Notes: generated by a model not told the origin, from the sequence alone. DNA of 63,506 bases from a bacterium ADurb.Bin212 (GCA_002070055.1 MWCM01000006.1:1-63506); one strand, 5' to 3'. Shown: positions 3,149 to 27,134, counted from the first letter of the stretch. Program-made: numbers and translations.

Positions 3149-3175
3149 TGTCGCAAATTAAATGTCTTTTAAACT

Positions 3176-5509: not shown

Positions 5510-5550
5510 CTAATAGTCTGCTAGGTGGCAGACGCAATATTACAGTTTAA

Positions 5551-5577
5551 ATTATACTGTAAAAAATATAATAACAA
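5551..5577 (-). promoter_or_regulatory. Candidate sigma70-type promoter for the 5509<-1 operon
   Basis: Minus strand reads TTGTTA (5577-5572), a 15-nt spacer, then TATAAT (5556-5551). A 6-bp hairpin (GTCTGC/GCAGAC, about 5517-5534) follows in the leader. Confidence 0.3.
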
Positions 5578-5581
5578 AACA

Positions 5582-6232: not shown

Positions 6233-6782
6233 ACCAAAATTTCTCCCATTTATGGACCATAATGTAGGATAAAATGCCGGAAGCTGTGCCCAGTAGCGCT
6301 CCGGCAATTACGTCGCTTGGGTAATGCAATCCGGCTCCTATGCGCGAAAGAGCTACCGCAATAGCAATAATAAGCAATGTTAAGCCCAATTTTTTATGTC
6401 CATATAGCAGAATTGATACGGCTATAGCAAATACTATGTAGGTGTGGCTAGAAGGGAAAGAGGCCATATCAACGGTAAATCTCTCTGGATTAGTGTTTAT
6501 GATGTCATCGGCATGCGCGATATATGGCCTGGGACGTTTCCAGAAGATGTAGATAGCCAAATCAATCATCCCAGCTATACCGATGGCAAAGAAAGAACAG
6601 ATTAAAGCGTTGATTCTTTTTGTCCATATGAGATATATAAAACTCAGAAACATAAGTACAATGCCGTATTTGGCAAAAAAAACATAAAATAATTGAACTT
6701 TATAATTCTTTATGCCCCAAAAATACATCGAATAAAGCCAACCGAAATCAATCGCTCTAATTTGATTTAATAAATTTTCCAT
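6192..6782 (-). CDS. PAP2-family (type 2) phosphatase, undecaprenyl-diphosphate/phosphatidic-acid phosphatase-like
   Basis: All three PAP2 motifs are present: KRPRP, PSSH and SRIGAGLHYPSD. Multiple TM helices. Confidence 0.85.
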   Translation of the reverse strand: MENLLNQIRAIDFGWLYSMYFWGIKNYKVQLFYVFFAKYGIVLMFLSFIYLIWTKRINALICSFFAIGIAGMIDLAIYIFWKRPRPYIAHADDIINTNPERFTVDMASFPSSHTYIVFAIAVSILLYGHKKLGLTLLIIAIAVALSRIGAGLHYPSDVIAGALLGTASGILSYIMVHKWEKFWYEPHQNGLARVKD

Positions 6783-6806
6783 AGCACCAATATAATAACA
6801 AGATAA

Positions 6807-6836
6807 TTGAGCAGTGTATATATTTTGTCGTATAAT
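6807..6836 (+). promoter_or_regulatory. Candidate promoter for the recombinase gene
   Basis: TTGAGC (6807-6812), an 18-nt spacer, then TATAAT (6831-6836). It lies about 57 nt upstream of the ATG at 6894. Confidence 0.4.
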
Positions 6837-6893
6837 ATTTGTGGGTAGCCAAAAATATTAAACCAAGAACCCAATAATAACATCGGGAGCAAA

Positions 6894-8201: not shown

Positions 8202-8208
8202 AGATCCT
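8182..8208 (-). terminator. Rho-independent terminator for the minus-strand small gene, overlapping the 3' end of the recombinase CDS
   Basis: Stem AGGATC/GATCCT (8191-8196 / 8203-8208) with a 6-nt loop. On the minus strand it is followed by TTTTATTTT (complement of 8182-8190). Confidence 0.55.
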
Positions 8209-8245
8209 AAATAAAGTGAGTTCAGCGAATGGGTGTTTTTACTGC

Positions 8246-8413
8246 TTAAGAGTTGTTGCGCAAGTCATCCCACATATCAAAGACCTCTACTTCGCAGAGA
8301 TCCGGTTGGGCGGCGCAGGCTGAAATTTCACTTTTTATCTGTTCTATACGTTGAAGTTCCGAGTTAATCGGGATTTCATCTAACTTATCTACTTTTTTGA
8401 TTTTTAATTGCAT
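8246..8413 (-). CDS. 55-aa acidic small protein with its own promoter and terminator
   Basis: Below the track cut-off. My translation: MQLKIKKVDKLDEIPINSELQRIEQIKSEISACAAQPDLCEVEVFDMWDDLRNNS*. Near-consensus promoter upstream and a hairpin plus U-tract downstream. No obvious SD. Confidence 0.55.
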   Translation of the reverse strand: MQLKIKKVDKLDEIPINSELQRIEQIKSEISACAAQPDLCEVEVFDMWDDLRNNS

Positions 8414-8428
8414 TTTGTTTTTGTGTTT

Positions 8429-8454
8429 CTAACCGCCTAATTTTTGGCGATTAG
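8429..8454 (-). promoter_or_regulatory. Inverted repeat overlapping the predicted +1 of the small-gene promoter (operator or 5' hairpin)
   Basis: CTAACCGCC (8429-8437), an 8-nt loop, then GGCGATTAG (8446-8454). In minus-strand RNA it is fully paired, with one G-U pair. Confidence 0.3.
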
Positions 8455-8457
8455 GTC

Positions 8458-8486
8458 ATTGTATCAAAAAAACGCCTCTATGTCAA
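8458..8486 (-). promoter_or_regulatory. Near-consensus sigma70 promoter (minus strand)
   Basis: Minus strand reads TTGACA (8486-8481), a 17-nt spacer, then TACAAT (8463-8458). Confidence 0.55.
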
Positions 8487-8524
8487 GGCATTTTGTGGTA
8501 TTGGTGGTTGATTTATAGCTGGGG

Positions 8525-8570
8525 AGCCCGCTGCCGGCTCGCGTGGCGTGAGCTCTTTTGGCAGCGGGCT
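8525..8570 (-). terminator. GC-rich 11-bp hairpin downstream of the candidate small ORF (no U-tract)
   Basis: AGCCCGCTGCC (8525-8535) pairs perfectly with GGCAGCGGGCT (8560-8570) across a 24-nt loop. Its role as a terminator or RNA structure is uncertain. Confidence 0.35.
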
Positions 8571-8586
8571 GGATCTCGGCTCGAAG

Positions 8587-8760
8587 TCAGTTCAGGTTGT
8601 GGCTGTCGACGCCGGGATTGAGGCACTCCATACACTCGTCACAGTTCGTTGGCCTACCCCTTTCGTCGGCGTTGGGGCAGCTTGGTCTTAGTATGGCGCA
8701 TCTCAGGACGACGACGATGTCAAAGAAAGTCCTTACGATAGCGCAAGCTTTTTGCAGCAT
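8587..8760 (-). CDS. Candidate 57-aa Cys-rich small ORF in a GC-rich island (alternatively a structured RNA)
   Basis: Minus-strand ATG at 8758-8760, with AAGGAGG 12 nt upstream. Translation: MLQKACAIVRTFFDIVVVLRCAILRPSCPNADERGRPTNCDECMECLNPGVDSHNLN* (6 Cys). It sits 47 nt downstream of the Mur-ligase stop. Local GC is far above the neighbours, so an open frame is weak evidence on its own. Confidence 0.3.
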   Translation of the reverse strand: MLQKACAIVRTFFDIVVVLRCAILRPSCPNADERGRPTNCDECMECLNPGVDSHNLN

Positions 8761-8807
8761 GGTGAGACATCACCTCCTTATTCGAGCACAGATTAAGACT
8801 TACAAAC

Positions 8808-14253: not shown

Positions 14254-16689
14254 ATGATGAAGAATATTAATAAAACTTGGGATCACAAGAAGCACGAAGC
14301 GAAGCTTTATGAAAACTGGGAGAAATCCGGCTATTTTAAGCCTGAAGTCAACATTGAGGAGACTACACGGACAAACACAGATAATGCAGAAGAGAAAGGG
14401 CTACTCGCTACTGACTACTCGCTACAAGCTAATAAAAACCCTTTCGTAATAGCTATACCGCCACCTAATGTCACGGGACAGCTTCATATTGGCCATGCAC
14501 TATTTGCAACTCTTCAAGATATAATGATCCGTTATCATCGTTTACAGGGCGAACCTTCGCTCTGGATCCCAGGCACAGACCACGCCGGCATTGCCACTCA
14601 AACCGTCGTAGACAAAATGCTTAAGAAACAGGGTATTAATCGTTTTGAAATTGGGCGAGAGAAGTTTTTAGAGCATGTTTGGAAATGGAAAGAGGAGTAC
14701 GGGGGCAAAATCAACCAGCAGTTGCGTGCTGTTGGTTCAAGTTGTGATTGGAGCCGTGAGCGGTTTACCTTAGATGATGGCTTGTCCCGTGCCGTTAATG
14801 AAGCTTTCGTTCATCTCTATAAAAAAGGACTAATTTATCGAGGTGAATATATCGTGAATTGGTGCCCAAAGTGTGGAACAGCTATTGCTGACGACGAAGT
14901 TGAATATACCGAGCAAAAAGGCAAGCTTTACTTCTTTAAATATGATAAGGACTTTCCTATATCAATAGCTACCACCCGCCCCGAAACGAAATTTGGTGAT
15001 GCAGCTGTGGCAGTAAATCCCAGCGACAAAAGATATAAAGAATTTATCGGAAAAAGCTACAATATCTGCCTGGATGGGGTCCAAAGGAATATTCAAATCA
15101 TCGCTGACAGATCGGTCGATTCCACTTTTGGAACGGGTGCAGTTGGTGTAACCCCGGCTCACTCAGCTGTAGACTGGCGAATGGGCGAGGAGCACGATTT
15201 ACCGCGCGTAAAGGTTATCAATGAGCGTGGCCGAATGACAGAAGAGGCCGGTGAAAAATATTCCGGACTCAAAACCGCAGAAGCAAGACAGAAGCTGGTT
15301 GAATACTTGCACTCTAATAATCTTTTGGAGAAGGAGGTGGAGCTCGATAATAATCTTTCGGTTTGTTATCGCTGTGCTACCGCAATTGAGCCGATTCCCA
15401 GTTTGCAGTGGTTTGTAAAAATGAAACCATTGGCAGAAAAGGCCAAAGAGGCGGTGGAGAGTAATCAGATAGAGATTATCCCTAAGCGCTTTGAAAAGGT
15501 TTATTACCATTGGATGGACAACATACGTGACTGGTGTATTAGCCGGCAGCTTTGGTGGGGACATCGAATACCAGTATGGTACCCGAAATCAAAAATCAAA
15601 AATCAAAGATCAAAAAGTGGAACTGATGATTCAGCTACTGACAACTATCAACTAGAAGCTAAAGATATTTATGTTGGCATAGAGCCACCTAAAGATATTG
15701 AAAATTGGATTCAGGATGAGGATGTACTGGATACATGGTTCTCTTCAGCACTTTGGCCATTTAGCACTCTTGGCTGGCCGGACGAGACAGCAGATTATAA
15801 AGCTTTCTACCCCAATACGGTTATGGAAACAGGTTATGACATTCTCTTTTTCTGGGTGGCACGGATGATAATGATGGGTTTGGAGCTAACTGATCAAGTG
15901 CCTTTTAAAACTGTTTACCTTCATGGCCTTGTGCGTGATGAGAAAAATCGCAAGATGAGTAAATCGTTGGGTAATGGCATAGATCCCTTAGAGGTAATTG
16001 ACAAATATGGCGCTGATGCCTTGCGTATGGCTTTGGTTGTGGGGTCTGCTCCTGGCCAAGATATACCGGTGGGAGAAAATAAAATCCGCGGTTATCGAAA
16101 TTTTTCCAACAAAATTTGGAATGCTTCGCGTTTTGTGGTTTTGCGTGTCTCTGAAGGAGACTTGCGAGAAGGGGAGATCGGAAAATTTGAAATCCAGGAT
16201 ATAGAATACAGTGAGAAATTATTGACTGAGGCAGATAAAGAGATACTGAAAAAACATCAGGAAGTTAAGGCTAAAGTCAAAAAATACCTAGATGAATTTA
16301 AATTTTCTTTGGCTGGCGAAACTCTTTACGAATACTTCTGGCATACCTTTTGCGATATTTATATCGAGCAGGCGAAAAGACAGTTGGAGACAGAAGAACA
16401 AAAAAACAAAGAAACTGAAAAACAAAAGAACAGTGGAACAGAAGGGCAGAAGGACATTGAAAATTTTGATATTGAGCATTCATTGAAAATTGAAAATTGT
16501 AAAATTGAAAATTCTAAACTTCCCCAAAACACTAAAAAAATTCTCATAAAAATCCTTTCAGAAAGTTTAGTGATGCTTCATCCTTTTGTGCCATATGTTA
16601 CTGAATCGGTTTGGCAGGAGCTAAGAGAGATATGTCCTACTCTCTCGGAGTCCATTATGATCTCAAAATGGCCCTCTGTTTCTGAATAA
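14254..16689 (+). CDS. valS: Valine--tRNA ligase with low-complexity insertions
   Basis: HIGH motif (PPPNVTGQLHIGHAL), KMSKS motif (RKMSKSLGNG), TTRPET, WCISRQLWWGHRIP and the ValRS-like N-terminus YENWEKSGYF. Confidence 0.95.
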   Translation: MMKNINKTWDHKKHEAKLYENWEKSGYFKPEVNIEETTRTNTDNAEEKGLLATDYSLQANKNPFVIAIPPPNVTGQLHIGHALFATLQDIMIRYHRLQGEPSLWIPGTDHAGIATQTVVDKMLKKQGINRFEIGREKFLEHVWKWKEEYGGKINQQLRAVGSSCDWSRERFTLDDGLSRAVNEAFVHLYKKGLIYRGEYIVNWCPKCGTAIADDEVEYTEQKGKLYFFKYDKDFPISIATTRPETKFGDAAVAVNPSDKRYKEFIGKSYNICLDGVQRNIQIIADRSVDSTFGTGAVGVTPAHSAVDWRMGEEHDLPRVKVINERGRMTEEAGEKYSGLKTAEARQKLVEYLHSNNLLEKEVELDNNLSVCYRCATAIEPIPSLQWFVKMKPLAEKAKEAVESNQIEIIPKRFEKVYYHWMDNIRDWCISRQLWWGHRIPVWYPKSKIKNQRSKSGTDDSATDNYQLEAKDIYVGIEPPKDIENWIQDEDVLDTWFSSALWPFSTLGWPDETADYKAFYPNTVMETGYDILFFWVARMIMMGLELTDQVPFKTVYLHGLVRDEKNRKMSKSLGNGIDPLEVIDKYGADALRMALVVGSAPGQDIPVGENKIRGYRNFSNKIWNASRFVVLRVSEGDLREGEIGKFEIQDIEYSEKLLTEADKEILKKHQEVKAKVKKYLDEFKFSLAGETLYEYFWHTFCDIYIEQAKRQLETEEQKNKETEKQKNSGTEGQKDIENFDIEHSLKIENCKIENSKLPQNTKKILIKILSESLVMLHPFVPYVTESVWQELREICPTLSESIMISKWPSVSE
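14401..14435 (+). repeat. Heptad tandem repeat (CTACTCG-like x5) in-frame near the valS N-terminus
   Basis: ctactcg ctactga ctactcg ctacaag ctaataa. Encodes LLATDYSLQANK, just upstream of the HIGH region. Confidence 0.9.
15588..15615 (+). repeat. Heptanucleotide repeat (ATCAAAA)x4, one variant unit, in-frame in valS
   Basis: atcaaaa atcaaaa atcaaag atcaaaa. Encodes KSKIKNQRSK. Same unit and same reading frame as 7690-7717. Confidence 0.95.
16456..16519 (+). repeat. Heptad-periodic run (TGAAAAT family) in-frame in the valS C-terminal region
   Basis: attgaaa attttga tattgag cattcat tgaaaat tgaaaat tgtaaaat tgaaaat tctaaac. Encodes IENFDIEHSLKIENCKIENSK. It is preceded by a CAGAAG-rich run at 16383-16455. 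Confidence 0.85.
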
Positions 16690-16723
16690 GGAATAGTGCA
16701 TTTTTTGCACACACTGGAATTTA

Positions 16724-17719
16724 ATGAATAAAAAAGATGAAAAAATGATCATCTATTCTGCGCCAGATAAGGGCGTAGAAATCAAGATTAAGCTGGATCA
16801 TGACACGATTTGGTTGACTAAAAAACAGATAGCTGAGCTTTTTAATGTTGATCGGACCGTGGTCTCCAGGCATATTAACAATATCTACAAATCTGAAGAG
16901 CTAGAGCGGAAAAGTACGTGTGCAAAAATTGCACATGTACTTGATAAAAGAGACCGTTCATACGAAAGTGAGATCTACAATCTGGATGCCATCATATCAG
17001 TCGGCTATCGGGTTAATTCCAAAAAAGCCACTCAATTCCGTGTCTGGGCTACAACTACTTTGCGTAAATATTTGATTGATGGTTATGCAATAAATCAAAA
17101 ACGTTTAGCCGAACAAGAGAAAAAACTGACAGAAATCCAGAAAACTGTTGCGCTAATTAGGGCTAAGTCGGATGAAAGGGAGCTTGTCGGTTACGAGCAT
17201 GAGCTGTTAGAACTCATTAACGAATACACAAAGTCTCTGGTTCTCTTAAACCAATATGACGAAGGTGCTCTAAAAATTGGCAAAGTCAATCGATATGTTA
17301 AGTTCCAACTTACTGAAGATGAATATCTTGAGGCCAAGCGAAAAATTGTTGAGTTGGTTAGTAAAGGAAAGCGAGCAGGGGAATTATTCGGTAGGGAGCA
17401 GGGCAACAAAATTAAGGGCATAATAGGGTCTATTAACCAGACATTTGATGGTAAAGAGTTATACGACAGCATCGAAGAGAAAGCGGCGCATCTGCTTTAT
17501 TTTATCATAAAGGATCATCCTTACAGCGACGGTAACAAGAGAATAGGCTCTATGTTATTCTTATACTTTTTACGGCGCAACGGATGTCTGTATAAAACTA
17601 ACGGAGGGGTTAAAATCAACGATAATACAATAATAGCCTTGGCTTTGTTGGTGGCCGTAAGCGATCCCGCCGAAAAAGACAGCATAATTAATCTGATTAT
17701 TAATATCATCAAAGAATAA
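16724..17719 (+). CDS. RhuM-like N-terminal domain fused to a Fic/Doc-family domain (Doc-type motif)
   Basis: The N-terminus (IWLTKKQIAELFNVDRTVVSRHINNIY...YNLDAIISVGYRVNSKKATQFRVWAT) is typical of RhuM. The C-terminal HPYSDGNKRIGS matches the Doc variant of the Fic motif. Confidence 0.8.
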   Translation: MNKKDEKMIIYSAPDKGVEIKIKLDHDTIWLTKKQIAELFNVDRTVVSRHINNIYKSEELERKSTCAKIAHVLDKRDRSYESEIYNLDAIISVGYRVNSKKATQFRVWATTTLRKYLIDGYAINQKRLAEQEKKLTEIQKTVALIRAKSDERELVGYEHELLELINEYTKSLVLLNQYDEGALKIGKVNRYVKFQLTEDEYLEAKRKIVELVSKGKRAGELFGREQGNKIKGIIGSINQTFDGKELYDSIEEKAAHLLYFIIKDHPYSDGNKRIGSMLFLYFLRRNGCLYKTNGGVKINDNTIIALALLVAVSDPAEKDSIINLIINIIKE

Positions 17720-17725
17720 ATTATT

Positions 17726-18175
17726 ATGGAGCAGAATAAACAGATATTTATCTTTTTACTCATTCAGTTGGCGATGATCTCTTTCTCTTATACAGAGGCA
17801 GTTTTGGAGGGGTATGAGGGCTGGGCCAAAGATCGTAAAGTCTGGCGTTTTAAAGTTTCCAGAAACCACGATTATACCAGCTATCACCTTGTTACGTATT
17901 ATTTGCTTTTTCCCCTGGTAATAATTGCCTTACCTCTACTTGTAGCAGGTTTTAGCTGGGAGCTATTTTGGTTACTTTTAGCTTCATATTTGATTGGTAG
18001 TATTTTTGAAGATTTTATGTGGTTTGTTTTTAACCCGGAGAGGCCATTTAGAAAGTGGAATCCTAAAGACACCACTTGGTATCCTTGGCTGGTTATTAAA
18101 AGATTTGCGTTGCCGGTTTCTTATGTTGTTAAATTTATTATTGGGGTGTTGATGTTAGTTTTTCTGGTTGGCTAG
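17726..18175 (+). CDS. 149-aa integral membrane protein, unknown function
   Basis: Four hydrophobic segments. It starts 7 nt after the upstream stop. No family recognised. Confidence 0.55.
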   Translation: MEQNKQIFIFLLIQLAMISFSYTEAVLEGYEGWAKDRKVWRFKVSRNHDYTSYHLVTYYLLFPLVIIALPLLVAGFSWELFWLLLASYLIGSIFEDFMWFVFNPERPFRKWNPKDTTWYPWLVIKRFALPVSYVVKFIIGVLMLVFLVG

Positions 18176-18179
18176 GATG

Positions 18180-18208
18180 TTGACACAAGGAATAAGGCTA
18201 ATTATAAT
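18180..18208 (+). promoter_or_regulatory. Perfect consensus sigma70 promoter
   Basis: TTGACA (18180-18185), exactly a 17-nt spacer, then TATAAT (18203-18208). Confidence 0.65.
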
Positions 18209-18244
18209 AAATAAACTAATAATTTAGTTTTTTAAGGAGAATAT

Positions 18245-18301
18245 ATGGGTGGATGTTGCGGATGCCCTCATTCCGATGAGTGCGGAGATAAAGAGGAGTA
18301 G
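18245..18301 (+). CDS. 18-aa Cys-rich micro-ORF MGGCCGCPHSDECGDKEE
   Basis: AAGGAGA (18234-18240), a 4-nt spacer, then ATG at 18245 and TAG ending at 18301. The consensus promoter lies 37 nt upstream of the ATG. 4 Cys and 1 His in 18 residues. The next gene is convergent, so this is not a leader peptide for a downstream gene. Confidence 0.5.
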   Translation: MGGCCGCPHSDECGDKEE

Positions 18302-18324
18302 TATTATAGCTCTTTGTAAAGATG

Positions 18325-20325
18325 CTACTTACTATCTTTAACCCTTTTGTAACTATCAACTGGGGATTTTTTTGTGTCTCTAAGCAACTCATTTATTATG
18401 TTGTTTGATTGAATGACTGCATTTTCTATGCCTCTATCTTCGGGGAAGATGTGTGCCATGCTTAGAACAAAGAACTCCCCCATGGGTGCTTTGATTGGCG
18501 GTATTTTGTAGTTATTTTTAATAACAGGTTGTGCATATTTATCTTTGACAACCTTGACGTTGTTTATTGAGTCAGAAAAATTTGGTGCAAGGCTGTTTAT
18601 CCAATCGAGAGCAATTTCTTTAATCTTATTATCATCTGTTTGGTATAAATCAGATTTTAAGGAGCAGTATTTGCCAAGATATATGATCTTTTCCTTGCTT
18701 AGTGGAAGTAAGTTGTTTTGCTCGACAATTACACCGAATGGTGCATTATTATCCAGGACAGTAATCCAATAGTGCTTACTGAGCGAAGTGTTTGCTTTTA
18801 TTATTACGCCCACAAAGCCCAGGTATTCAATGCCGCGTTGTCGGTAGGATGGATATATTCGGCTACTCTCATTTGGGGCTAATGTGCTAATACAATAGTC
18901 GAATCTTTCGCCGTCGATTTTTATACCCTGTTTGCTTTTTTTTATTGAATTAACATTGTGACAGGTAATTATTCTGCCTCCGTTTCCGACAATATCTCGA
19001 GCTAATTTTTCGATTAAGATTCCGAATCCACCTTTGGGATAAATTAGGGTTTCTATTTGTGATTTTTTATCACGGCTTTTAACTCGGCTAATAAACCAGC
19101 TGGCGGAGATTTTTTTAGAATAGTGGCCGAATTTTCCTTCGAATACCGGTTGCCAAAAAATGTTCCAAACAGTTTTGCCGAGTTTTGCTTCTATCAGCTT
19201 TTTGGCAGTTTTGTTGTTGTGCTTTGCTGGATCTATTAATTTGAACACAAGGTTGCCGGCACCCATAATCATTTTTTGCACCAATGAGAAGTGGGGAAGT
19301 TTTAGTAAATCAAAAGCATTATTAAAAGAGTAAATCGTTTTGCTTTTTAAGCAGGCCATTGAAGCGGGAATCTTTTCTAATCGATCCGAGATCTTTAATT
19401 CATTAAATAAATTGATGATATTTTGTTGATTTGTAAATATATGATGATAGTGTCTGTCAATTTTGGTGCCATCCATATTAAAAGTGGATAATAACCCACC
19501 AATTTGAGGTTCTTTTTCAAATACGGTTACCGTGTAGCCCAACTTAGATAGCCGATAAGCACAAATTAAACCCGTGATGCCGGCACCGATTATGGCAATT
19601 TTTTTGTTTAACATATTGCTTTCCGAAATATTTGCTCGAGGCTTAAATGTGTTTATATGGTTTGCAAACCGTAAAGCATCGTGACCCAAACGAGTCATTT
19701 TGGCAAGAGAATAGCCACCTTTCCCTCTCTGCCTGCTTTGTCTATCATAAAAAATATTACTCTTTTTTAGATTTAGTTTTTGCACCTCGCCCCTCAAAAA
19801 AATCGAGGGCTGTCTTTTGTTAATGATTTGATTAATCGCTTTTCTGTCAAGTAGATAGAACTCCCCAATTCTTGGATCAAGTGTTGTTTTAGACACTCTG
19901 TTTAACAGCCAATAAAACAAATTTGCTGAAATTATTTTAAATGGACGATCTTTGCGGTTCTTTCTGATTGGCAAAACAACATCAGCTCCATCTCGCCATT
20001 GCTCAATCATCTCCAAAATTAGATACGGCGGGTCTTGTAGGTCGCAATCTAAAACTATTGCCGCTTCTCCGGTGCAATACATCAATCCTTCATAAATGGC
20101 CGCTTGTTGGCCGTAATTTTTATCAAAACAGATGTGTTTGATGCGGTCATCTTTGGTCGCCAATCGTTTGATTGTGTTTTGAGTGTTGTCGGTTGACCCA
20201 TCATTAACGAAAATTATTTCAAAGAGACAGCCGGAAAGATTTAAGTGACGTCTTAATTCGAAATAAAATTTCGGCAATGATTCCTGCTCGTTATATATTG
20301 GGGAGATAATAGATATTTTTTTCAT
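18325..20325 (-). CDS. Fusion protein: N-terminal GT2 glycosyltransferase plus C-terminal FAD/NAD(P)-binding oxidoreductase (amine-oxidase/phytoene-desaturase-like fold)
   Basis: GT2 motifs: ISIISPIYNEQESL, VNDGSTDNT, VLDCDLQDPP. Then a Rossmann dinucleotide motif, KKIAIIGAGITGLICAYRLSKLGYTVTVFEKEPQIGGL, at about aa 242, followed by about 420 aa. Confidence 0.8.
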   Translation of the reverse strand: MKKISIISPIYNEQESLPKFYFELRRHLNLSGCLFEIIFVNDGSTDNTQNTIKRLATKDDRIKHICFDKNYGQQAAIYEGLMYCTGEAAIVLDCDLQDPPYLILEMIEQWRDGADVVLPIRKNRKDRPFKIISANLFYWLLNRVSKTTLDPRIGEFYLLDRKAINQIINKRQPSIFLRGEVQKLNLKKSNIFYDRQSRQRGKGGYSLAKMTRLGHDALRFANHINTFKPRANISESNMLNKKIAIIGAGITGLICAYRLSKLGYTVTVFEKEPQIGGLLSTFNMDGTKIDRHYHHIFTNQQNIINLFNELKISDRLEKIPASMACLKSKTIYSFNNAFDLLKLPHFSLVQKMIMGAGNLVFKLIDPAKHNNKTAKKLIEAKLGKTVWNIFWQPVFEGKFGHYSKKISASWFISRVKSRDKKSQIETLIYPKGGFGILIEKLARDIVGNGGRIITCHNVNSIKKSKQGIKIDGERFDYCISTLAPNESSRIYPSYRQRGIEYLGFVGVIIKANTSLSKHYWITVLDNNAPFGVIVEQNNLLPLSKEKIIYLGKYCSLKSDLYQTDDNKIKEIALDWINSLAPNFSDSINNVKVVKDKYAQPVIKNNYKIPPIKAPMGEFFVLSMAHIFPEDRGIENAVIQSNNIINELLRDTKKSPVDSYKRVKDSK

Positions 20326-20378
20326 TTATTGATGAATTGGGTATAATCATTATAAGCATCAGATAAAGGGGAAACTTA

Positions 20379-23276
20379 ATGCAAGAAAAAAAATCCAGAT
20401 TTTACGCTCTTGACCTACTGCGAGGTTTGGCAGTTTTTTTGATGTTACTCGCTCATTCTGTTTATTTTTTCTCTCATCGTGACAGTTCTCTGATTATTTC
20501 CTTGGAGAATACTGGCAACGTCTTTTGTTTTACAACTTTTTTGCTGATATCTGGTGCGGTCTCTTATATTGCATATTTAAACCATGATCTGGCTGATTCC
20601 AGGAAGAACAGGGTTATTAAGCGAATCCTAGCGTTGATAGTATCATATTATCTTATTGCGGTTTTTGTCGAGCTGAAGAGTATTTTACATGCTGATGTTT
20701 GGCAAAAAATAAGTATATTATTGGATATTATAACTTTAAGGAATTTGCCTTCTTATACCGAATATATTGTGCCATTCATAATATATCCTCTTATAATGTT
20801 TGTGTTTTCAGATGTCTTCCGCAAAATTGCAAAAAATATACTTCTAGTTGTTGTATTTTCTACAATATTTTATCTTGTCGGCTTTCTTGTATATAATCTG
20901 CCCTTTGCCGGCTTTTTTGAGCCATGGAAAGCTTTGGTGGCCGGAGCTGAGGGATATTTCAGGTTTCCTTTATTACAGTATTTTCCTGTATTCCTGCTCG
21001 GCTTATACTGGGGGCGACAACTTATTAGGTTGGAAAATATAAAGCTCAAAGAACAGCTTGTCGCTAAGTTGGGGTTATTATTTGCAATCACATTTTTATT
21101 GATATGGTATTTTGCTAATGCTCTTGATGTTAGTGCCGGAGAAATTCTTCGAAGATGGCCGCCATCTTTAGGCTTTCTGGCCTTCTCTTCTAGTATTTCC
21201 TTCCTTGTTTCATATTTAATATACAAATCAAAGAATTTTAGATCCTTACCTGTTTTAAAGGACTTTCTTCTTATACTTGGACAAAACGCATTCGCATTTT
21301 TCTGGGCACACGTCTTCTTGCTCACTTTGTATAAATTTATAAGTGGTCCACAAATCAGTTCGCTATTGGTATTTGTTATTATGTTTGTTCTGCTAATTGT
21401 GGTTTCTCTGATATTAGCTACTATATTGCCATTTAACTATAGGTTTGTGTTGTGCAAAGTTAGAGGGTCTTGCGAGGAAGATGAAATAAGGGATTCCGAG
21501 GTTTTGAAATTAGAAGAAGAGGTGCTTAGAGGCACAAAAAAAGAACTCGGATTTTTACGCAAGTTCTTTTTCCCGGCTCCCGATGGGACAACAAAAAGAA
21601 AAAGGCTGATTAAAAAAAGACATATTCTAGCCGGCTTAGTGATTGGCGCGGTCGTAGCAGCTCTGGTTTCGCCTGCTATTGTCGAAGAAGTAAAAACATC
21701 GATTAAAAATAGCAGAAATGCATCTTGGTGGGATGATAGTTATGCTTACAGACAAAATATTAATGTCGTGAACACTAGCACATTCAGCAATATTTCTGAG
21801 GGACAAACTCTAAAATTTCAAATAAACCACAAAAAAATGGTGGAGGCCGGCGAATCAAAGGCAGATGGGGGAGATATTAGGATGGTATATCTGGCCGCAT
21901 CCGGCTATAAAGAAATCGCCTTCCTCGTTGATTCTTGGGGCAGCGAACAAACCGAAATCACCTTTAATAACCAGGAAATCATAAATGGGGGCAGTAACGA
22001 TTCTCTTTATTTTCTATATTTTGGCAATACCTTAGCCTCTTTTGAGCCAGGTGACTTTAATTTGGAGCCTACTCCCGCTGATTACAGAGTTGAGTTATCT
22101 AGCACATCTACCCATGCCGTTTTAGCTTCAGTGTCAAAAAAATGGAATTTAATTGAAAAGGATGATGGAAAATTAGAGGTATATGGCCGCCCAATGGTTG
22201 AGGTTTCCAAGGAAGCTACGGTTAGATACAGAGTTTTAGATACTCCTTTGAAAGGAATGATGGTCGTGAATTCGGAAGGTTTTTTTGAGGCTCAAATACA
22301 AATCTCTTCGCTAAAAGCTGGAACTTACCAAGTTCAGATTGAACTTAACGATAACGGCAATATACTCTTGAGTCAGAAGGTTGGTTTTTATGTTTCTTAT
22401 CCTCTGTATATAACCTGGACTTATGATTGGGAAGGTTATGATGTTAGCGGAGCATATTTGAAAGCCAGCGAAGATATTTCAAGAGAATATGGTGTGCCAA
22501 TTACTCACTTTTTTAATCCCAGGATATTTACCACAAGTACAATAACTCCAGACAGAGCACAGTATTTAACAGATTGGTTAAGAAACAGGATGAATATCGG
22601 TGATGGCTATGGCTTACATCTGCATATGTTTTATGATTTTGTCGAGTTGAGCGGTGTTACTCCCAAAAAAGAGCCGAGGTGGGATAAAGCAGAAGGCGAT
22701 GGTTACAGCGTTTTGACCTCTGCCTATAGCAAAGATGAGCTTAAGCAAATTATTTCTAAGGCTATGTCTGAACTAGAAAATCAAGGCTTGCCGGAGCCGG
22801 AAATATATCGTGCTGGCGGTTGGTTTTCCAATATTGAGACGCTAAAAGCGCTAGAAGAGTTGGGTTTTGGGGCTGATAGCTCTGGCAGAACCGCTTACAA
22901 GTTTGGACAAAACAGTATTGCTGGCCACTGGGATTTATCGCCTCTATCGCAACCTTATTTTCCATCTCGGACCGATCAGAACGCGCCGTCCCTTAGTAAT
23001 CACCTTAATTTATTAGAGATCCCCAACAATGGCACTGATTCCTATTGGTTTAGCGCTTCAGAGATGATTGAAAGATTTAACGCAAATTTTACCAATCAGC
23101 CATTAAAAGAGAAGAAGCAACTCACCTATTTATCTCATCCTCACTGGTTTAAACAGTCTGAGCAAAGTCGAATAAGGGAGCTGTTTGGATATATTGCAAA
23201 ATATAATAATTCTAGTGATTCAGGGCCCGTTATCTACGTAACAAGTCAGGAGATATTAGACATTTGGACTAAATAA
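20379..23276 (+). CDS. 965-aa fusion: acyltransferase-3/DUF1624-like polytopic membrane domain, DUF2341-like domain and polysaccharide-deacetylase-like C-terminal domain
   Basis: N-terminal FYALDLLRGLAVFLMLLAHS plus about 10 TM helices. WWDDSYAYRQNINV...ADGGDIRMVYL is DUF2341-like. The C-terminal YITWTYDWEGYD...GLHLHMFYDF...YRAGGWF resembles NodB-type/carbohydrate esterase domains (recollection). Confidence 0.7.
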   Translation: MQEKKSRFYALDLLRGLAVFLMLLAHSVYFFSHRDSSLIISLENTGNVFCFTTFLLISGAVSYIAYLNHDLADSRKNRVIKRILALIVSYYLIAVFVELKSILHADVWQKISILLDIITLRNLPSYTEYIVPFIIYPLIMFVFSDVFRKIAKNILLVVVFSTIFYLVGFLVYNLPFAGFFEPWKALVAGAEGYFRFPLLQYFPVFLLGLYWGRQLIRLENIKLKEQLVAKLGLLFAITFLLIWYFANALDVSAGEILRRWPPSLGFLAFSSSISFLVSYLIYKSKNFRSLPVLKDFLLILGQNAFAFFWAHVFLLTLYKFISGPQISSLLVFVIMFVLLIVVSLILATILPFNYRFVLCKVRGSCEEDEIRDSEVLKLEEEVLRGTKKELGFLRKFFFPAPDGTTKRKRLIKKRHILAGLVIGAVVAALVSPAIVEEVKTSIKNSRNASWWDDSYAYRQNINVVNTSTFSNISEGQTLKFQINHKKMVEAGESKADGGDIRMVYLAASGYKEIAFLVDSWGSEQTEITFNNQEIINGGSNDSLYFLYFGNTLASFEPGDFNLEPTPADYRVELSSTSTHAVLASVSKKWNLIEKDDGKLEVYGRPMVEVSKEATVRYRVLDTPLKGMMVVNSEGFFEAQIQISSLKAGTYQVQIELNDNGNILLSQKVGFYVSYPLYITWTYDWEGYDVSGAYLKASEDISREYGVPITHFFNPRIFTTSTITPDRAQYLTDWLRNRMNIGDGYGLHLHMFYDFVELSGVTPKKEPRWDKAEGDGYSVLTSAYSKDELKQIISKAMSELENQGLPEPEIYRAGGWFSNIETLKALEELGFGADSSGRTAYKFGQNSIAGHWDLSPLSQPYFPSRTDQNAPSLSNHLNLLEIPNNGTDSYWFSASEMIERFNANFTNQPLKEKKQLTYLSHPHWFKQSEQSRIRELFGYIAKYNNSSDSGPVIYVTSQEILDIWTK

Positions 23277-25324
23277 TGAGTTTTATCACAACAGTTTTTG
23301 AACAAAAAAATCTTTATTATTTTTTACTGACAATGATATCCGTATTAATTCTGTTGCTGTTTTTTGTGCTTTTTTGGCATTTCTATAAAAAAAGACATTA
23401 TATTGAGGCCTTAAATAAGGTTTTTATAGTAAAAGCAATGAATTACTGGATAATTTATATATCAATTATATTATTTATAATTCTCCTAAATGCGTCTGCC
23501 ATGGCCATGTTAACTCCCGATGTCACCTCTCCGTCTGGGCCGTCTATGGATTCTGTTATTGTTTCAGCGAGCAAACCTTTGGTTGTTGAATTTGATAGAC
23601 CGATTTCTAAGTCAATCAGTTATGAAATTACCCCAGAGTTGGAGGGAAACTGGCGAGTGGAGAATAGTTTGATACTTAAAAATTCAAAACTGGTATTTAC
23701 ACCTGATGTGACTCCTGATTTAGACACGAGATACACAGTATCCCTAAAGAACGTTAAGAATCATTTGGGTTCGAAAAAAAGAGAATATCTATTTAGTTTT
23801 CAAACACCAAAAGCGCCAGAAGTTATCGAGACATCAATTCTAGATGGCGCAATAAACGTTATGCCGGACGCAAAAATTATTATTAGAACTGATCCTATAA
23901 TTGATAATTCAGCCAATCTATATTTTGAGATTGTTCCTCAAACTGAGTTAGATGTTACTAAATCTGGTAATGAGTATACAATCAGAGCCAAAGATCGTTT
24001 TGTAAAAAGTACCAGCTACAACCTTAAGGTTCTGAGGAATCTGGTCAGATTCAGTTATAAGCTGAACAAAGCGATTAATGAAACGGAAAAACTAGAGATA
24101 TTCTCCACAAATTTTCGCACTATTGATGCCCCTGGCGTCAAAAGCACCTCTCCTTCCGGATCAGGTGTTCTGGTCGACAGCAATATTGTTGTTGAATTTA
24201 ACCAGCCAATGGACCGGCAAAGCGTTGAGGAGTCTTTTTCTGTTGACCCTAGTGTTTCCGGGATGTACTCTTGGGATGGAGATTCAAAATTGGTATTTGA
24301 TCCCGAAAATGTCCTGACAAAAAACTCAAGGTATTCAGTTAGAATCTCTAAAGATGCTAAGGCTTCGGATGGAAGCAATATTGAAGAAGAGATCGGTTTT
24401 GAATTTGTTACCATCGGCTATGTTCAGGTTAGCATTTTTTATCCTACGAGTGGTGCCAAAGAGGTGTCTAAATCAACAAAAATTTCAATAACTTTTAATC
24501 AAGATGTTGATCACAGTTCAGCTGAAAGTAGATTCTCGATTAGTCCAACGGTAAACGGCAGTTTTAGTTGGAGTGGCAATACCCTAATCTTTAATCATGA
24601 CCAGCTTGCCGATTATCAAAGTTATACGTTAAAAATTGAGGCAGGGGTTAAGACGGTCCATGGTTTGGATTCAAAAGAGGCCTTTTCCGGTTCCTTTACC
24701 ACGCAGATTCCAAAATACCAGCTAAATGTCTCTGCATTTAGACAAGCACACATGTACACCTGCATGAGCTCGGCGGCCAGAAGTGCAATGGCTTATAAGG
24801 GAGTTTCTCTTGGTGAGGATGCCATATCCAGCAGAATTGGATATGACTCAACTCCATGGAGTGGCACATGGAACGAGGGTGGTGCAGTTTGGGGTGATCC
24901 GGATGTTGGCATTGTTGGCGACATAAACGGCAAAGCAGACAATATTGGTTGGGGCTATGGCTCGCATTGGAATCCCGTTGCAAATGCAATAAGAAGTTTT
25001 GGTTTAGGGGCGGAGGTTAAGAGTGGTTGGAGTGTAAGCGGGATTGCTAGTGAGATTGCGGCCGGCAATCCGGTAATAATCTGGTGGGTAAACGGTGTTT
25101 GGCCTGCTTATGAAGTTGACTGGAAAACGCCTGGCGGTAAGAGTGTCCGCGGCGTGAACTCTATGCATGTCCAAGTGGTGAAGGGTTTCACTGGGACCGT
25201 CGATAATCCCCAATCTTTTGTTGTTACAGATTCGGGTTACGGTTATCCGGGACGTAGTTACGATGTTGGCACATTTAAAGCAAAATGGAGCTGGTTCGGG
25301 AACACGGCGATAGTAGTCAGATGA
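23276..25324 (+). CDS. Membrane-anchored protein with tandem Ig-like (SbsA/Big-type) domains and a C-terminal C39-like cysteine peptidase domain
   Basis: A TAATG overlap couples it to the upstream gene. Repeated SPxxGxxxVxxxxxIxxxFxxPM/V modules. The C-terminal MYTCMSSAARSAMAYKG (Cys), GYGSHWNPVANAI and MHVQVVKGFTG (His) are typical of peptidase_C39-like domains. Confidence 0.75.
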   Translation: MSFITTVFEQKNLYYFLLTMISVLILLLFFVLFWHFYKKRHYIEALNKVFIVKAMNYWIIYISIILFIILLNASAMAMLTPDVTSPSGPSMDSVIVSASKPLVVEFDRPISKSISYEITPELEGNWRVENSLILKNSKLVFTPDVTPDLDTRYTVSLKNVKNHLGSKKREYLFSFQTPKAPEVIETSILDGAINVMPDAKIIIRTDPIIDNSANLYFEIVPQTELDVTKSGNEYTIRAKDRFVKSTSYNLKVLRNLVRFSYKLNKAINETEKLEIFSTNFRTIDAPGVKSTSPSGSGVLVDSNIVVEFNQPMDRQSVEESFSVDPSVSGMYSWDGDSKLVFDPENVLTKNSRYSVRISKDAKASDGSNIEEEIGFEFVTIGYVQVSIFYPTSGAKEVSKSTKISITFNQDVDHSSAESRFSISPTVNGSFSWSGNTLIFNHDQLADYQSYTLKIEAGVKTVHGLDSKEAFSGSFTTQIPKYQLNVSAFRQAHMYTCMSSAARSAMAYKGVSLGEDAISSRIGYDSTPWSGTWNEGGAVWGDPDVGIVGDINGKADNIGWGYGSHWNPVANAIRSFGLGAEVKSGWSVSGIASEIAAGNPVIIWWVNGVWPAYEVDWKTPGGKSVRGVNSMHVQVVKGFTGTVDNPQSFVVTDSGYGYPGRSYDVGTFKAKWSWFGNTAIVVR

Positions 25325-25345
25325 TATTTGAACGAAGGAGATTAC

Positions 25346-25424
25346 AACACAAATCTTTACACAAATAAACACAAATGGGGACAAGGTTATAACACAAATC
25401 TTTACACAAATAAACAAAAATGAG
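25346..25424. repeat. Two 34-nt direct repeats (45-nt period) built from ACACAAAT octamers, in a convergent intergenic region
   Basis: aacacaaatctttacacaaataaaca occurs at 25346-25371 and identically at 25391-25416. Both extend to about 34 nt with 2 mismatches. Confidence 0.9.
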
Positions 25425-25476
25425 TACCACAGCGAAAAAGAGATTAATATAGAAAACGATTTTAGCTCTTTCGTTA

Positions 25477-25513
25477 TCATCGCGAGGAGGTACGACGAAG
25501 CAATCTTATAATC
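25477..25513. repeat. Short dispersed element, intergenic copy (related to 61506-61548)
   Basis: tcatcgcgaggaggtacgacgaagcaatcttataatc compared with gtcattgcgaggagcggttttgcgacgtggcaatctaataatc. They share the tcatYgcgaggag head and the gcaatctWataatc tail. Confidence 0.7.
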
Positions 25514-25594
25514 AATGTCACATATATTTTATGATAAGTACCAATAAACAGAATGATTAATTAGTGACTATTTGTGTGTGGATTAGTGTTTTAA

Positions 25595-26995
25595 CTACTT
25601 TGTTTTATACGCAACTACCCCCAGATCACCGTCCCAATAGACCGGTTTATAATTATTTAGCACATAGCTTTGCAATTTTTTTGCGTAGGCGTAGTTACTA
25701 TCTGCCGGCCAGATTACTAAATAATCATCATCTTTGATCGTCTCAATTGTTTTCTCTTCCGCTTGTTCGCTCCAGTCGCTAATTTCAGTAATGTATAAAT
25801 ATTTATTAGGGGGCTGATTTCCGGTCAAAAAATACATTCCTGTAAACTGGTTTTCGGCATAAATTGCCGTATTTTGTCGTCTTAAAAAAACAGAAAGATT
25901 TTTTTCTGCAACATGTCGAGAATAATTTCCTTTAACATTTACGGTGGTAAAAATTATGCAAAAAATAATTAAAAATATTGTTGTAAAAACTCTTGTGCTT
26001 GGACTCACTTTATTCATTGTGGCAGACGCGATGATCGCAAAAAACGGAGCAACTTGCAGCCAATAGTGTGGATAGTGACGGCCAAAAAACAGGAAGATTG
26101 GGAGCGTTGCCAATAGAGCAATCAACACCAATGGATGACGAATTTGCCAAATGGCTAATAACGAATTGTCAACTTTGTTGAAATTGCGAATAGTCATCTG
26201 GTTTGGCGGGCGACGAAGCAATCTGATTGCCGCGAAGCCGGATAATAGCCATATTGGGAGTGTGTAGAGAAAAGAAGGAGTTAACAAGCGGATTACCTTA
26301 ACAATATTTTCGCTTGGATAAAATTTAAAATTATATAAAATAATTTGCTCATATGCTATCGGCAAGATGTTCGAAGCCCATAACCATAATATTGTTACGA
26401 TTATAGGAATAAGGGTTCCGGTTATTATCCAAGGTAGCTTCTTATGTTTTTTCTGCCAGATGAAATAGACCAGAAAGGCAAAAGCTGAAAGTAGAAATGT
26501 TTGCTTGATGAGGATCGAGACACCCAACAGAAACCCGGTTAGTAAGGCGCTAGTGAGTTTTTTCGCTGATAGGTTAACATAGAGGCTCAAAAGTAAGAAA
26601 AGGACCCCAAAAGGCTCTGCAATCATTCTTTGACCCTCAAAGATTAATATTAGGCAGAGATAAAATAATATAGTGTAATGCCCAGATATTTTTATCTTTT
26701 GCGAAATCAAGAAGATTAGCAACAACGATACAAGGTGGCTGGTGATTAGTAGAAATTTGTAGAAAAAAATATTCTTTGTTGCTAGCGACAGAATCCCAAA
26801 AATGAAATAGATTCCGGGCGGTTTATGATCGAAAAAATCCCGATAGGGGAGTAAACCGTTTTTTAGGCCTTCGGCTATGGTTAAGAAAACTCCTTCGTCT
26901 TGCTGAAGCGGTAAAATAAATGTGGTTAGGATTAAGCAAAGAAAAACCAACAACATGATTATGTAAAGGCGAAGGTCTTTGTTGGATATCTGCAT
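25595..26995 (-). CDS. GT-C fold glycosyltransferase (ArnT/PMT-like, GT39/GT83 type)
   Basis: 466 aa with about 11 TM helices. The first loop, QQDEGVFLTIAEGLKNGLLPYRDFFDHKPPGIYF, is typical of ArnT/PMT-like enzymes. Confidence 0.75.
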   Translation of the reverse strand: MQISNKDLRLYIIMLLVFLCLILTTFILPLQQDEGVFLTIAEGLKNGLLPYRDFFDHKPPGIYFIFGILSLATKNIFFYKFLLITSHLVSLLLIFLISQKIKISGHYTILFYLCLILIFEGQRMIAEPFGVLFLLLSLYVNLSAKKLTSALLTGFLLGVSILIKQTFLLSAFAFLVYFIWQKKHKKLPWIITGTLIPIIVTILWLWASNILPIAYEQIILYNFKFYPSENIVKVIRLLTPSFLYTLPIWLLSGFAAIRLLRRPPNQMTIRNFNKVDNSLLAIWQIRHPLVLIALLATLPIFLFFGRHYPHYWLQVAPFFAIIASATMNKVSPSTRVFTTIFLIIFCIIFTTVNVKGNYSRHVAEKNLSVFLRRQNTAIYAENQFTGMYFLTGNQPPNKYLYITEISDWSEQAEEKTIETIKDDDYLVIWPADSNYAYAKKLQSYVLNNYKPVYWDGDLGVVAYKTK

Positions 26996-27045
26996 AGACT
27001 TATCAAAAGTATATTAATCAATTACAATAATATGGTAGCATCATC

Positions 27046-27080
27046 AATAATGGATGACGAGTTTGCCAAATGACGAATCA
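27046..27080 (-). pseudogene. Short fragment homologous to an internal segment of the adjacent GT-C gene, located in its own upstream region
   Basis: aatggatgacgaGtttgccaaatgAc (27048-27073) compared with aatggatgacgaAtttgccaaatgGc (26130-26155), same orientation. It translates as IWQTRHPL versus IWQIRHPL. Confidence 0.4.
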
Positions 27081-27134
27081 CAAATATTAGTCATTAGTTA
27101 TTTAGTATATTAGTTATTCTTTTGTGGAGGTTAT

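Follow-up and report, generated by a model that had tools for sequence, protein, structure and literature searches.

Evidence for a conserved 18-codon, cysteine-rich micro-gene behind a consensus promoter in Saccharibacteria-like bacteria, with a possible metal- or iron-sulfur-binding product

Clusters of iron and sulfur (Fe-S clusters) are ligated by the cysteine spacing C-x2-C-x5-C in WhiB-like proteins (PMC5462746) and in MutY/EndoIII (bioRxiv 10.1101/2025.01.03.631205), and the three cysteines of this motif alone form an oxygen-sensitive cluster in RseC (PMC11729352). A synthetic 16-mer with the spacing CxxCxxC, even in versions that are otherwise all glycine, assembles [4Fe4S] and can act as a redox partner (PMC10946529). 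Cysteine-rich short open reading frames (ORFs) have been described in mycobacteria, where abundantly transcribed polycysteine ORFs form the first cistron of operons for sulfur metabolism and act in cis (bioRxiv 10.1101/834739). The subject of this report is a micro-ORF of 18 codons that carries the same C-x2-C-x5-C spacing and lies behind a perfect TTGACA-17-TATAAT promoter in a 63,506-nucleotide (nt) stretch of DNA from a bacterium ADurb.Bin212 (GCA_002070055.1 MWCM01000006.1:1-63506), referred to below at its full length as the window, which belongs to the metagenome-assembled genome GCA_022705445.1 at NCBI and derives from anaerobic digester and sludge metagenomes. The comparisons described here indicate that this micro-ORF is very probably a real protein-coding gene. 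A role of its product in metal or Fe-S binding or in thiol redox chemistry, as suggested by the motif, is put forward more tentatively, at a confidence a little short of even. For the statement as a whole, that is, a conserved and separately transcribed micro-gene with a peptide that most likely binds a metal or an Fe-S cluster, the balance of the sequence evidence leans modestly in favor.

The promoter, Shine-Dalgarno sequence, start codon and 18-codon ORF reported in an earlier note on this DNA were all found where that note had placed them, with the promoter at 18180-18208. The parts of the locus in the window are as follows.

18180-18185, plus strand: -35 hexamer TTGACA, invariant in the close relatives (type 1, see below) and in contigs L011, L008, L017 and L007
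18186-18202, plus strand: promoter spacer of 17 nt, its length kept and 10 of its 17 bases different between the window and the L004 group
18203-18208, plus strand: -10 hexamer TATAAT, invariant in the type-1 relatives, L011 and L008, and TATACT in L017
18214-18244, plus strand: predicted 5' untranslated region of about 30 nt, the transcript start at about 18214-18216 being placed from the position of the -10 hexamer
18234-18239, plus strand: Shine-Dalgarno sequence AAGGAG, inside the 5' untranslated region and 5 nt ahead of the ATG at 18245
18245-18301, plus strand: micro-ORF of 18 codons and a TAG stop codon (18299-18301), encoding MGGCCGCPHSDECGDKEE
18296-18330, unstranded: 10-bp hairpin over the two stop codons of the convergent gene pair (-11 to -13.7 kcal/mol, z = -1.65)

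The -35 box begins 5 nt past the stop codon of an upstream gene for a membrane protein of 149 residues. The next gene downstream, which encodes a protein with glycosyltransferase GT2 and flavin adenine dinucleotide (FAD) amine-oxidase parts (GT2-FAD, 18325-20325, minus strand), is convergent with the micro-ORF, as the earlier note had observed, and its stop codon lies 23 nt beyond that of the micro-ORF. The hairpin between the two genes has a poor U-tract and is a possible weak, bidirectional terminator. As that note had also stated, the encoded peptide contains four cysteines (4 of 18 residues, or 22%), one histidine and an acidic tail. The core of the peptide reads Cys4-x2-Cys7-x5-Cys13, to which Cys5 and His9 could add further ligands. 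The computed isoelectric point and net charge of the peptide are about 4.4 and about -4. Computed monoisotopic masses of the reduced peptide are 1724.553 Da for GGCCGCPHSDECGDKEE, in which Met1 has been removed, and 1855.594 Da for the form that retains Met1. The DNA sequencing runs that contain the locus represent essentially one strain, with zero variants inside the micro-ORF.

Given homologues of the 149-residue protein as a point of entry, close relatives of the locus were found. Contigs L004, L018, L020, L021 and L022, which together with the window make up the type-1 set, encode a 149-residue protein 92-95% identical to that of the window and carry the promoter-ORF unit about 70 nt after its gene, with the peptide MGGCCGCPHSDECEDKDK. 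Among the window and these five contigs, 11 of the 57 nt of the micro-ORF are variable. All six variable sites in codons 2-13 (6/6) are third-position and synonymous and zero are nonsynonymous, a distribution with a probability of about 1.5e-5 under random placement, and amino acid changes among the type-1 peptides are confined to the tail, where they amount to G14E, E17D and E18K. The gene for the 149-residue protein, across an equal evolutionary distance, differs at 87 of 450 nt, distributed 14/5/68 by codon position, and there was therefore ample time for the micro-ORF to change. An alignment of type-1 DNA showed both promoter hexamers to be invariant while 10 of the 17 spacer bases differed. 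Fixed hexamers and a fixed spacer length around variable spacer bases are the pattern expected of a working promoter. The Shine-Dalgarno box, TAAGGAGAATA, was likewise invariant. Insertions and deletions (0-7 nt) were noted only in the leader between the -10 hexamer and the Shine-Dalgarno box, the ORF itself being free of them, and similarity between the units stopped directly after the stop codon of the micro-ORF. From the pattern of substitutions, of insertions and deletions and of the point at which homology ends, the conserved block comprises exactly promoter, leader and ORF, and it is the encoded amino acids on which selection acts. A reading frame not conserved in relatives had been named in the earlier note as a refutation, and the outcome was the opposite: frame, peptide, hexamers and Shine-Dalgarno box were all found to be kept, with synonymous changes in the ORF and insertions and deletions in the leader only.

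Two other frames at this position were considered and rejected. A GTG frame of 30 residues, which was the choice of the gene caller in one contig, is not kept in relatives. An antisense ORF of 58 residues has no conserved counterpart, as stop codons interrupt two of the three antisense frames of L004 and all three of those of L020.

Similar units were found in more distant lineages, in which the neighboring 149-residue protein is 62-72% identical to that of the window and the peptides, encoded nearby on the same strand, are 21-47 residues long. These units are listed below by contig.

L011, 3539-3604: MIRCGGCGPCPGCPGDDVPKA, behind a perfect TTGACA-17-TATAAT
L008, 4192-4299: MGCDCSGCPQAGQCGQDDSTQEPQVDEAGEGEKDE, behind a perfect TTGACA-17-TATAAT
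L017, 5157-5300: MDGCYGCPHQGQCGDQGDNNVNTDNDTDSDATVESPINNREDEAEVN, behind a promoter matching at 11 of 12 positions
L007, 1166-1234: MGCDACGGCGGCGTDVPQTPAK, behind a weaker promoter

A translation-initiation region of the form GGAG(A/T)ATA-n(1-3)-ATG is common to all six lineages, and a clear intrinsic terminator directly follows the ORF in L011, L007, L008 and L017. When the family peptides were anchored on their first shared cysteine, Cys-x2-Cys-x5-Cys was present in every one and was followed by Gly or Pro. A further Cys or His occurs at a shifting position, namely Cys5 and His9 in the window, His9 in L017, Cys3 in L008 and a Cys inside the x5 segment in L011 and L007, and the acidic or polar tail ranges in length from 5 to 34 residues. 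From lineage to lineage different codons are used for Cys (TGT/TGC), Gly and Pro, but the residues themselves do not change. In a scan of 6267 short ORFs (10-70 residues) from the window and all loci, the regular expression C..C.{5}C matched 11 ORFs, all 11 of them family members. The peptides thus assembled constitute a previously undescribed micro-protein family of 18-47 residues in a Saccharibacteria-like (Patescibacteria) clade of anaerobic sludge, with a signature that consists of a perfect sigma-70 promoter, GGAG(A/T)ATA-ATG and M-x(1-3)-C-x2-C-x5-C, then an acidic tail.

The promoter was also weighed against chance. The exact sequence TTGACA-17-TATAAT (12/12) occurs a single time in the 63.5-kb window, compared with an expectation of 0.02 from dinucleotide shuffles, 2 of 100 of which contained it. 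With one mismatch allowed, 2 promoters were observed against 0.92 expected, and because this count is ordinary the promoter taken alone is only mildly significant. It is accepted as real because relatives have it again ahead of their own copies of the ORF. A scan of both strands of related, non-redundant DNA, about 116 kb in all, gave eight promoters with 12/12 matches, and seven of these stand ahead of family ORFs. Within the window, no intergenic short ORF other than the micro-ORF combines an ATG start, a length of at least 15 residues, a Cys content of 20% or more and a Shine-Dalgarno sequence. The sole perfect promoter in the related loci that does not precede a family micro-ORF (L011, 4184-4212) sits just upstream of a MazE-like/PIN toxin-antitoxin pair, and a search of the 130 nt that follow gave no pair of Shine-Dalgarno sequence and ATG.

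Database searches agreed with the statement in the earlier note that the peptide belongs to no known family, those of Pfam, NCBIfam, Rfam and protein collections being empty of relatives. Thus, no matches to the family peptides were obtained in Pfam and NCBIfam at E <= 10, for which searches the 18-mers were padded with XX to 20 residues, and no match to models of bacterial metallothioneins (SmtA/BmtA-type; Metallothio_Pro and related) was found in these databases at the same threshold. No Rfam (15) family reached its gathering threshold in the window, and nothing meaningful was found at E <= 10 on 18100-18450. The members of 35 and 47 residues are present, unnamed, in protein collections, where each matched only itself, and those of 21 and 22 residues were not present in the protein collection. 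No match was found by tblastn to collections of phages and plasmids. The back-translated pattern ATGGGNGGNTGYTGYGGNTGYCCNCAY had no match in viral_contigs and one match in metagenome_contigs, which was dismissed as chance since it lies in the antisense frame of a GC-rich gene.

Several specific identities were also considered. The spacing C-x2-C-x5-C of WhiB-like (Wbl) proteins, which in these is part of C-Xn-C-X2-C-X5-C inside a domain of about 80-120 residues, is present, but at 18 residues and with no match to Pfam Whib the resemblance is one of motif only. A CCHC zinc knuckle of the retroviral type (C-x2-C-x4-H-x4-C) differs from the arrangement in the window, C4-x2-C7-x1-H9-x3-C13, and had no Pfam match; the His is missing from the L008, L011 and L007 peptides. 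Ferredoxin-type CxxCxxC spacing is present in L011 (CGGCGPCPGC) and L007 (CDACGGCGGC) and is not found in the window peptide (CCGC-x5-C). The inhibitory motif of Fic antitoxins, (S/T)xxxE(G/N), was seen on direct reading not to be kept across the family, and a function as Fic antitoxin was rejected. Among the functions offered in the earlier note, a metal-binding or redox-active thiol peptide fits best because three cysteines are invariant and accompanied by a floating fourth ligand, while the two other options, a lipid-modified peptide and an ORF incidental to a small RNA (sRNA), are disfavored. A lipoprotein or lipid-modified peptide was rejected from the lack of a hydrophobic segment, signal peptide or lipobox and from the identity of residue 2, which is Gly, Asp (L017) or Ile (L011) by lineage.

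Several described systems resemble the family in part. Like the family peptides, metallothioneins and Cu-thioneins (SmtA/BmtA and MymT) are small, gene-encoded and Cys-rich, have no hydrophobic core and carry Gly or Pro between their cysteines, and coordination of soft metals by thiolates is presumed to be shared. There is, however, no sequence relationship, the three or four cysteines of the micro-ORF peptide are enough for one site as opposed to a multi-metal cluster, and its acidic tail is not typical of metallothioneins. Metallothioneins are also not known to be as short as 18 residues. Haloarchaeal CPxCG zinc-finger proteins and small zinc-ribbon proteins are stand-alone modules the size of a single metal knuckle and are often missed by gene callers. 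These proteins usually have 40-60 residues and two CxxC knuckles split by a hairpin, whereas the micro-ORF peptide is one contiguous 10-residue Cys cluster followed by an acidic tail. With the Fe-S motifs of WhiB, RseC and MutY/EndoIII the family peptides share C-x2-C-x5-C together with a remote or floating fourth ligand. In those proteins the motif lies within folded domains of 80-350 residues whereas in the family peptides it is nearly the whole protein, and WhiB, RseC and the helix-hairpin-helix glycosylases have no homology to the family. The CxxCxxCxxC peptides of L011 and L007, with their Gly and Pro spacers, resemble in sequence the synthetic peptides (ferredoxin maquettes) that assemble [4Fe4S]. 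The mycobacterial polycysteine ORFs are likewise unannotated, very short and Cys-rich, with non-Cys residues that are sometimes conserved (bioRxiv 10.1101/834739). They differ in being leaderless first cistrons of cysteine and sulfur operons that act in cis through RNA structure. The micro-ORF, in comparison, has a 30-nt leader, a strong Shine-Dalgarno sequence, a terminator of its own and convergent or unrelated downstream genes, and it has no conserved run of Cys.

The explanation that we favor begins with a perfect promoter of the sigma-70 type, which would give rise to a monocistronic mRNA of about 90-120 nt with a strong Shine-Dalgarno sequence, its very high expression being inferred from the perfection and conservation of that promoter. 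This mRNA would be translated into a soluble, acidic peptide of 18 residues, or 17 if Met1 is removed, for which a cytoplasmic location is inferred. Function would reside in the first 13-15 residues, which follow the pattern M-x(1-3)-Cys-x2-Cys-x5-Cys-[Gly/Pro] and include a shifting Cys or His, and the acidic or polar tail of variable length is probably disordered. In the most likely mechanism the three fixed thiolates and the floating fourth ligand would wrap one metal center, which could be either a tetrahedral Zn, Fe or Cu site or a cluster of the [4Fe-4S] type. An abundant peptide of this kind would then buffer or carry metal or Fe-S, or be a small carrier in electron transfer or dithiol redox reactions. 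From the sequence, an Fe-S cluster is as possible as a Zn, Cu or Fe thiolate site that resembles a metallothionein or a knuckle, and as possible as a function in dithiol redox chemistry, to which the CGPC of L011 points. Exposed clusters could survive because these organisms live in anaerobic sludge.

Several observations weigh against this explanation. A short motif and the composition are the only basis on which metal binding is proposed. The fourth ligand is not fixed in position, and L017 has three Cys and one His only. The family is known from six lineages only, all of them sampled through one syntenic neighborhood, and the homology of the L011 and L007 peptides (CxxCxxCxxC) to the window type is one of position, translation-initiation region and three aligned cysteines, the alignment score not being significant. 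Modeling of the 47-residue member with AlphaFold2 from a 3-sequence alignment gave a mean predicted local distance difference test (pLDDT) score of 59.6, no secondary structure and no confident fold, a result that is uninformative, as expected for a metal-dependent micro-protein. The only run labeled 'METAGENOMIC RNA-Seq' in which the locus was found (X25) also includes a 130-kb contig and is probably DNA. Its true matches to window positions 1-40000 were two 151-nt contigs only (18049-18199 and 18174-18324). Because of the 130-kb contig and the declared source, 'METAGENOMIC', this run was treated as DNA and no conclusion was drawn from it. In three true metatranscriptomes (X26-X28), which come from a study in whose data the genome is present, no match was found on 16000-20500, these being only 69-95 Mb and too small to inform.

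A reading close to the favored one is that the peptide is a low-molecular-weight thiol, a dithiol-disulfide redox buffer that replaces glutathione-like thiols where biosynthesis is minimal and does not bind metal. A Cys content of 22% would suit such a function, as would the thioredoxin-type CGPC and the CPGC of L011, the CGGC of L007 and the very high copy number suggested by the promoter, and the metabolism of Patescibacteria is reduced. On the other hand, the kept spacing C-x2-C-x5-C with its fourth ligand resembles a coordination site as opposed to a single CxxC pair, and an anaerobic habitat lessens the need for a thiol buffer. We regard this function as unlikely in its pure form, while recognizing that it overlaps the favored explanation and is partly included there.

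A more specific proposal is that the family matches the synthetic ferredoxin maquette but occurs in nature and is encoded by genes. Its peptides, at 17-22 residues, would assemble [4Fe-4S] or another Fe-S cluster. Three fixed Cys and one floating ligand would bind the cluster, in the peptide alone or as a dimer, and the product would provide anaerobic Saccharibacteria of reduced genome with a minimal carrier of electrons or donor of clusters in abundance. This proposal is considered quite unlikely.

The remaining explanations place the function of the locus outside a metal- or thiol-active peptide. In the first, the micro-ORF is a cysteine-sensing attenuator, an upstream ORF in which ribosomes stall at Cys codons when Cys-tRNA is scarce and thereby alter downstream termination or translation. 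In mycobacteria, regulation in cis by short ORFs rich in Cys has been proven (bioRxiv 10.1101/834739), two Cys codons follow one another in the window ORF, and the succession of ORF, intrinsic terminator and co-directional gene in L004, L018 and L020, in L011 and in L007 is formally the layout of an attenuator. In the window and in the distant L008, however, the next gene is convergent, which leaves nothing downstream to regulate. Where downstream genes are co-directional they are mutually unrelated and do not belong to sulfur metabolism (VTT/DedA, an unknown protein of 114 residues and RhuM-Fic), and two of them have extended -10-like boxes of their own (TGnTATAAT-like), as seen by eye only. 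Consecutive Cys codons are found only in the window/L004 type and in none of L017, L008, L011 and L007, while the non-Cys residues Gly6, Pro8, Gly14 and Asp15 are kept through synonymous change. No conserved alternative RNA pairing was seen, and the z score of the fold was -0.94. An attenuator is thus very unlikely, and the claim in the earlier note that the ORF is not a leader peptide stands, given that the convergent layout is also that of L008 and that elsewhere a terminator intervenes ahead of downstream genes that are mutually unrelated.

In the second, the product of the locus would be a small regulatory or antisense RNA that extends into the convergent GT2-FAD gene at its 3' end, the ORF being incidental or secondary. 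The transcript expected from the strong promoter is short, in both the window and L008 it would stop inside the convergent gene's 3' end or abut it, and in the window the hairpin overlaps both stop codons. RNAs of dual function exist. The variation in the ORF is nevertheless strictly codon-periodic, with insertions and deletions kept out of it, the hairpin in the window leader has not been kept in L004, and folding was no better than that of shuffles (z = -0.94), with no Rfam match even at E <= 10. Moreover, sequence past the stop codon is not conserved, and the unit is intact in the L004 group, which is without the convergent gene. Judged from these results, an RNA function of this sort is highly improbable.

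The third, that the micro-ORF encodes the precursor of a ribosomally synthesized and post-translationally modified peptide (RiPP), with an N-terminal core modified at Cys (thioethers, thiazol(in)es or a chalkophore-like copper binder) and an acidic C-terminal follower of a kind known from bottromycin, can draw on the conserved Cys/Gly-rich core, the variable tail and the constant proximity of the 149-residue membrane protein and the RhuM-Fic protein, but seems no less improbable than an RNA, as Pfam lists for about 10 neighborhoods contain no gene for a radical-SAM enzyme, YcaO, lanthionine synthetase, MNIO/DUF692 or peptidase-ABC exporter, the 5-residue tail in the window is too short for a recognition sequence, the 149-residue protein has no recognizable enzyme fold and the linkage is explained by conserved gene order.

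The genes that surround the micro-ORF in the window are the following.

14254-16689, plus strand: class-I aminoacyl-tRNA synthetase (aaRS), upstream of the micro-ORF
16724-17719, plus strand: RhuM-Fic protein, upstream of the micro-ORF
17726-18175, plus strand: membrane protein of 149 residues with no Pfam family, upstream of the micro-ORF
18325-20325, minus strand: GT2 and FAD amine-oxidase protein of 666 residues, the next gene and convergent with the micro-ORF

The unit was always found on the strand of the block formed by the aaRS, Fic and 149-residue protein genes and at most about 2 kb away from it. It is placed after the gene for the 149-residue protein in the window, L004, L011, L008 and L017, and in L007 the aaRS and Fic genes lie on either side of it. 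The GT2-FAD gene that faces the unit in the window also does so in L008, and because L008 is distant this convergent layout is old. A terminator and then a VTT/DedA gene, which lies at 27135 in the window, come after the unit in the L004 group. A segment of about 8.8 kb in the window (18325-27100), which contains cell-envelope and glycan genes (the GT2-FAD amine oxidase, a 965-residue Acyl_transf_3 protein, a protein with Big_5 and Peptidase_C39_2 domains, and PMT_2), is missing from the close relatives L004, L018 and L020. Since the GT2-FAD gene is retained in L008 and L011, this segment was probably lost from the L004 group. Linkage of the unit to the block is read as a conserved gene order (aaRS, Fic, 149-residue protein, micro-ORF, GT2-FAD) as opposed to a functional operon, because the downstream neighbors change freely from case to case and every unit comes with a promoter and a terminator of its own.

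The 149-residue proteins form a family with a mean column identity of 74%, and their gene is nearly always the next one after the RhuM-Fic gene. The predicted structure of the window protein consists of four helices and two beta-hairpins with an internal two-fold repeat (pLDDT 85.5). No Pfam family, no fold match in the PDB at E <= 0.001 and no recognizable enzyme fold were found for this protein. A scan of genome_contigs with the family gave two loci only, both in metagenome-assembled genomes of Candidatus Saccharibacteria, and among species-representative genomes the family was found in 'uncultured Candidatus Saccharibacteria' only.

Other small genes were noted in the same neighborhood. In several lineages a second small unit, designated family B, lies right after the gene of the 149-residue protein family, at the following positions.

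L005, 1335-1424: family B unit
L007, 2779-2856: family B unit
L008, 3631-3705: family B unit
L025, 1940-2011: family B unit

Each has a promoter of the TTGACA type and an ORF of 23-29 codons that is rich in His and Arg in the middle and closes with a hydrophobic part that contains Cys. Examples of the encoded peptides are MIKQSNNLVRRHHRNSFLPGCYFVV, MDIQISTTSVRNHRRTRFCGLLCC and MIQFEAQNSVHHHSHISCGLLFV. The ORF is followed, after about 50-70 nt, by a conserved terminator, and the product could be either a peptide or an sRNA. Family B had no Rfam match and, among the matches listed, no copy in the window. Further small Cys-containing ORFs were seen at L024 971-1105 and L025 2093-2269, one of them encoding 44 residues with a zinc-ribbon-like CxxC...CxxC arrangement behind TTGACA-17-TATACT and with its own terminator, and the other encoding 58 residues with four Cys. 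The region downstream of the gene for the 149-residue protein thus seems to gather strongly promoted small genes. Elsewhere in the window, the left end (305-8201) encodes a tyrosine integrase (6894-8201) and, on the minus strand, a TrbL/VirB6-like protein of 947 residues (305-3148), which points to an integrated conjugative or mobile element there. Adjoining the integrase is a segment of about 600 nt without a long ORF (8202-8807), which contains a promoter matching at 11 of 12 positions on the minus strand (8486-8458), a 55-codon ORF on the minus strand (8413-8246) and an unusually GC-rich part at about 8500-8720, and for which nothing convincing was found in Rfam.

The importance of the locus lies in part in its size. 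Comparative evidence alone establishes, with high if not complete confidence, a gene of 18 codons, which would rank among the shortest independently transcribed protein genes of bacteria, and genes so short escape standard gene callers. The peptide is cheap to synthesize, and the hypotheses about its function are therefore directly testable. If an Fe-S cluster is bound, the finding would bear directly on ideas of minimal and ancestral ferredoxins, and if the family does correspond to a maquette, its members would be the smallest known Fe-S proteins, and the proto-ferredoxin that has been proposed would have in them a living analogue. Should the promoter have the strength it appears to have, the peptide could be among the most abundant products of these uncultivated, host-dependent bacteria and would bear on the way in which metals, Fe-S clusters or thiol redox reactions are handled with a minimal genome.

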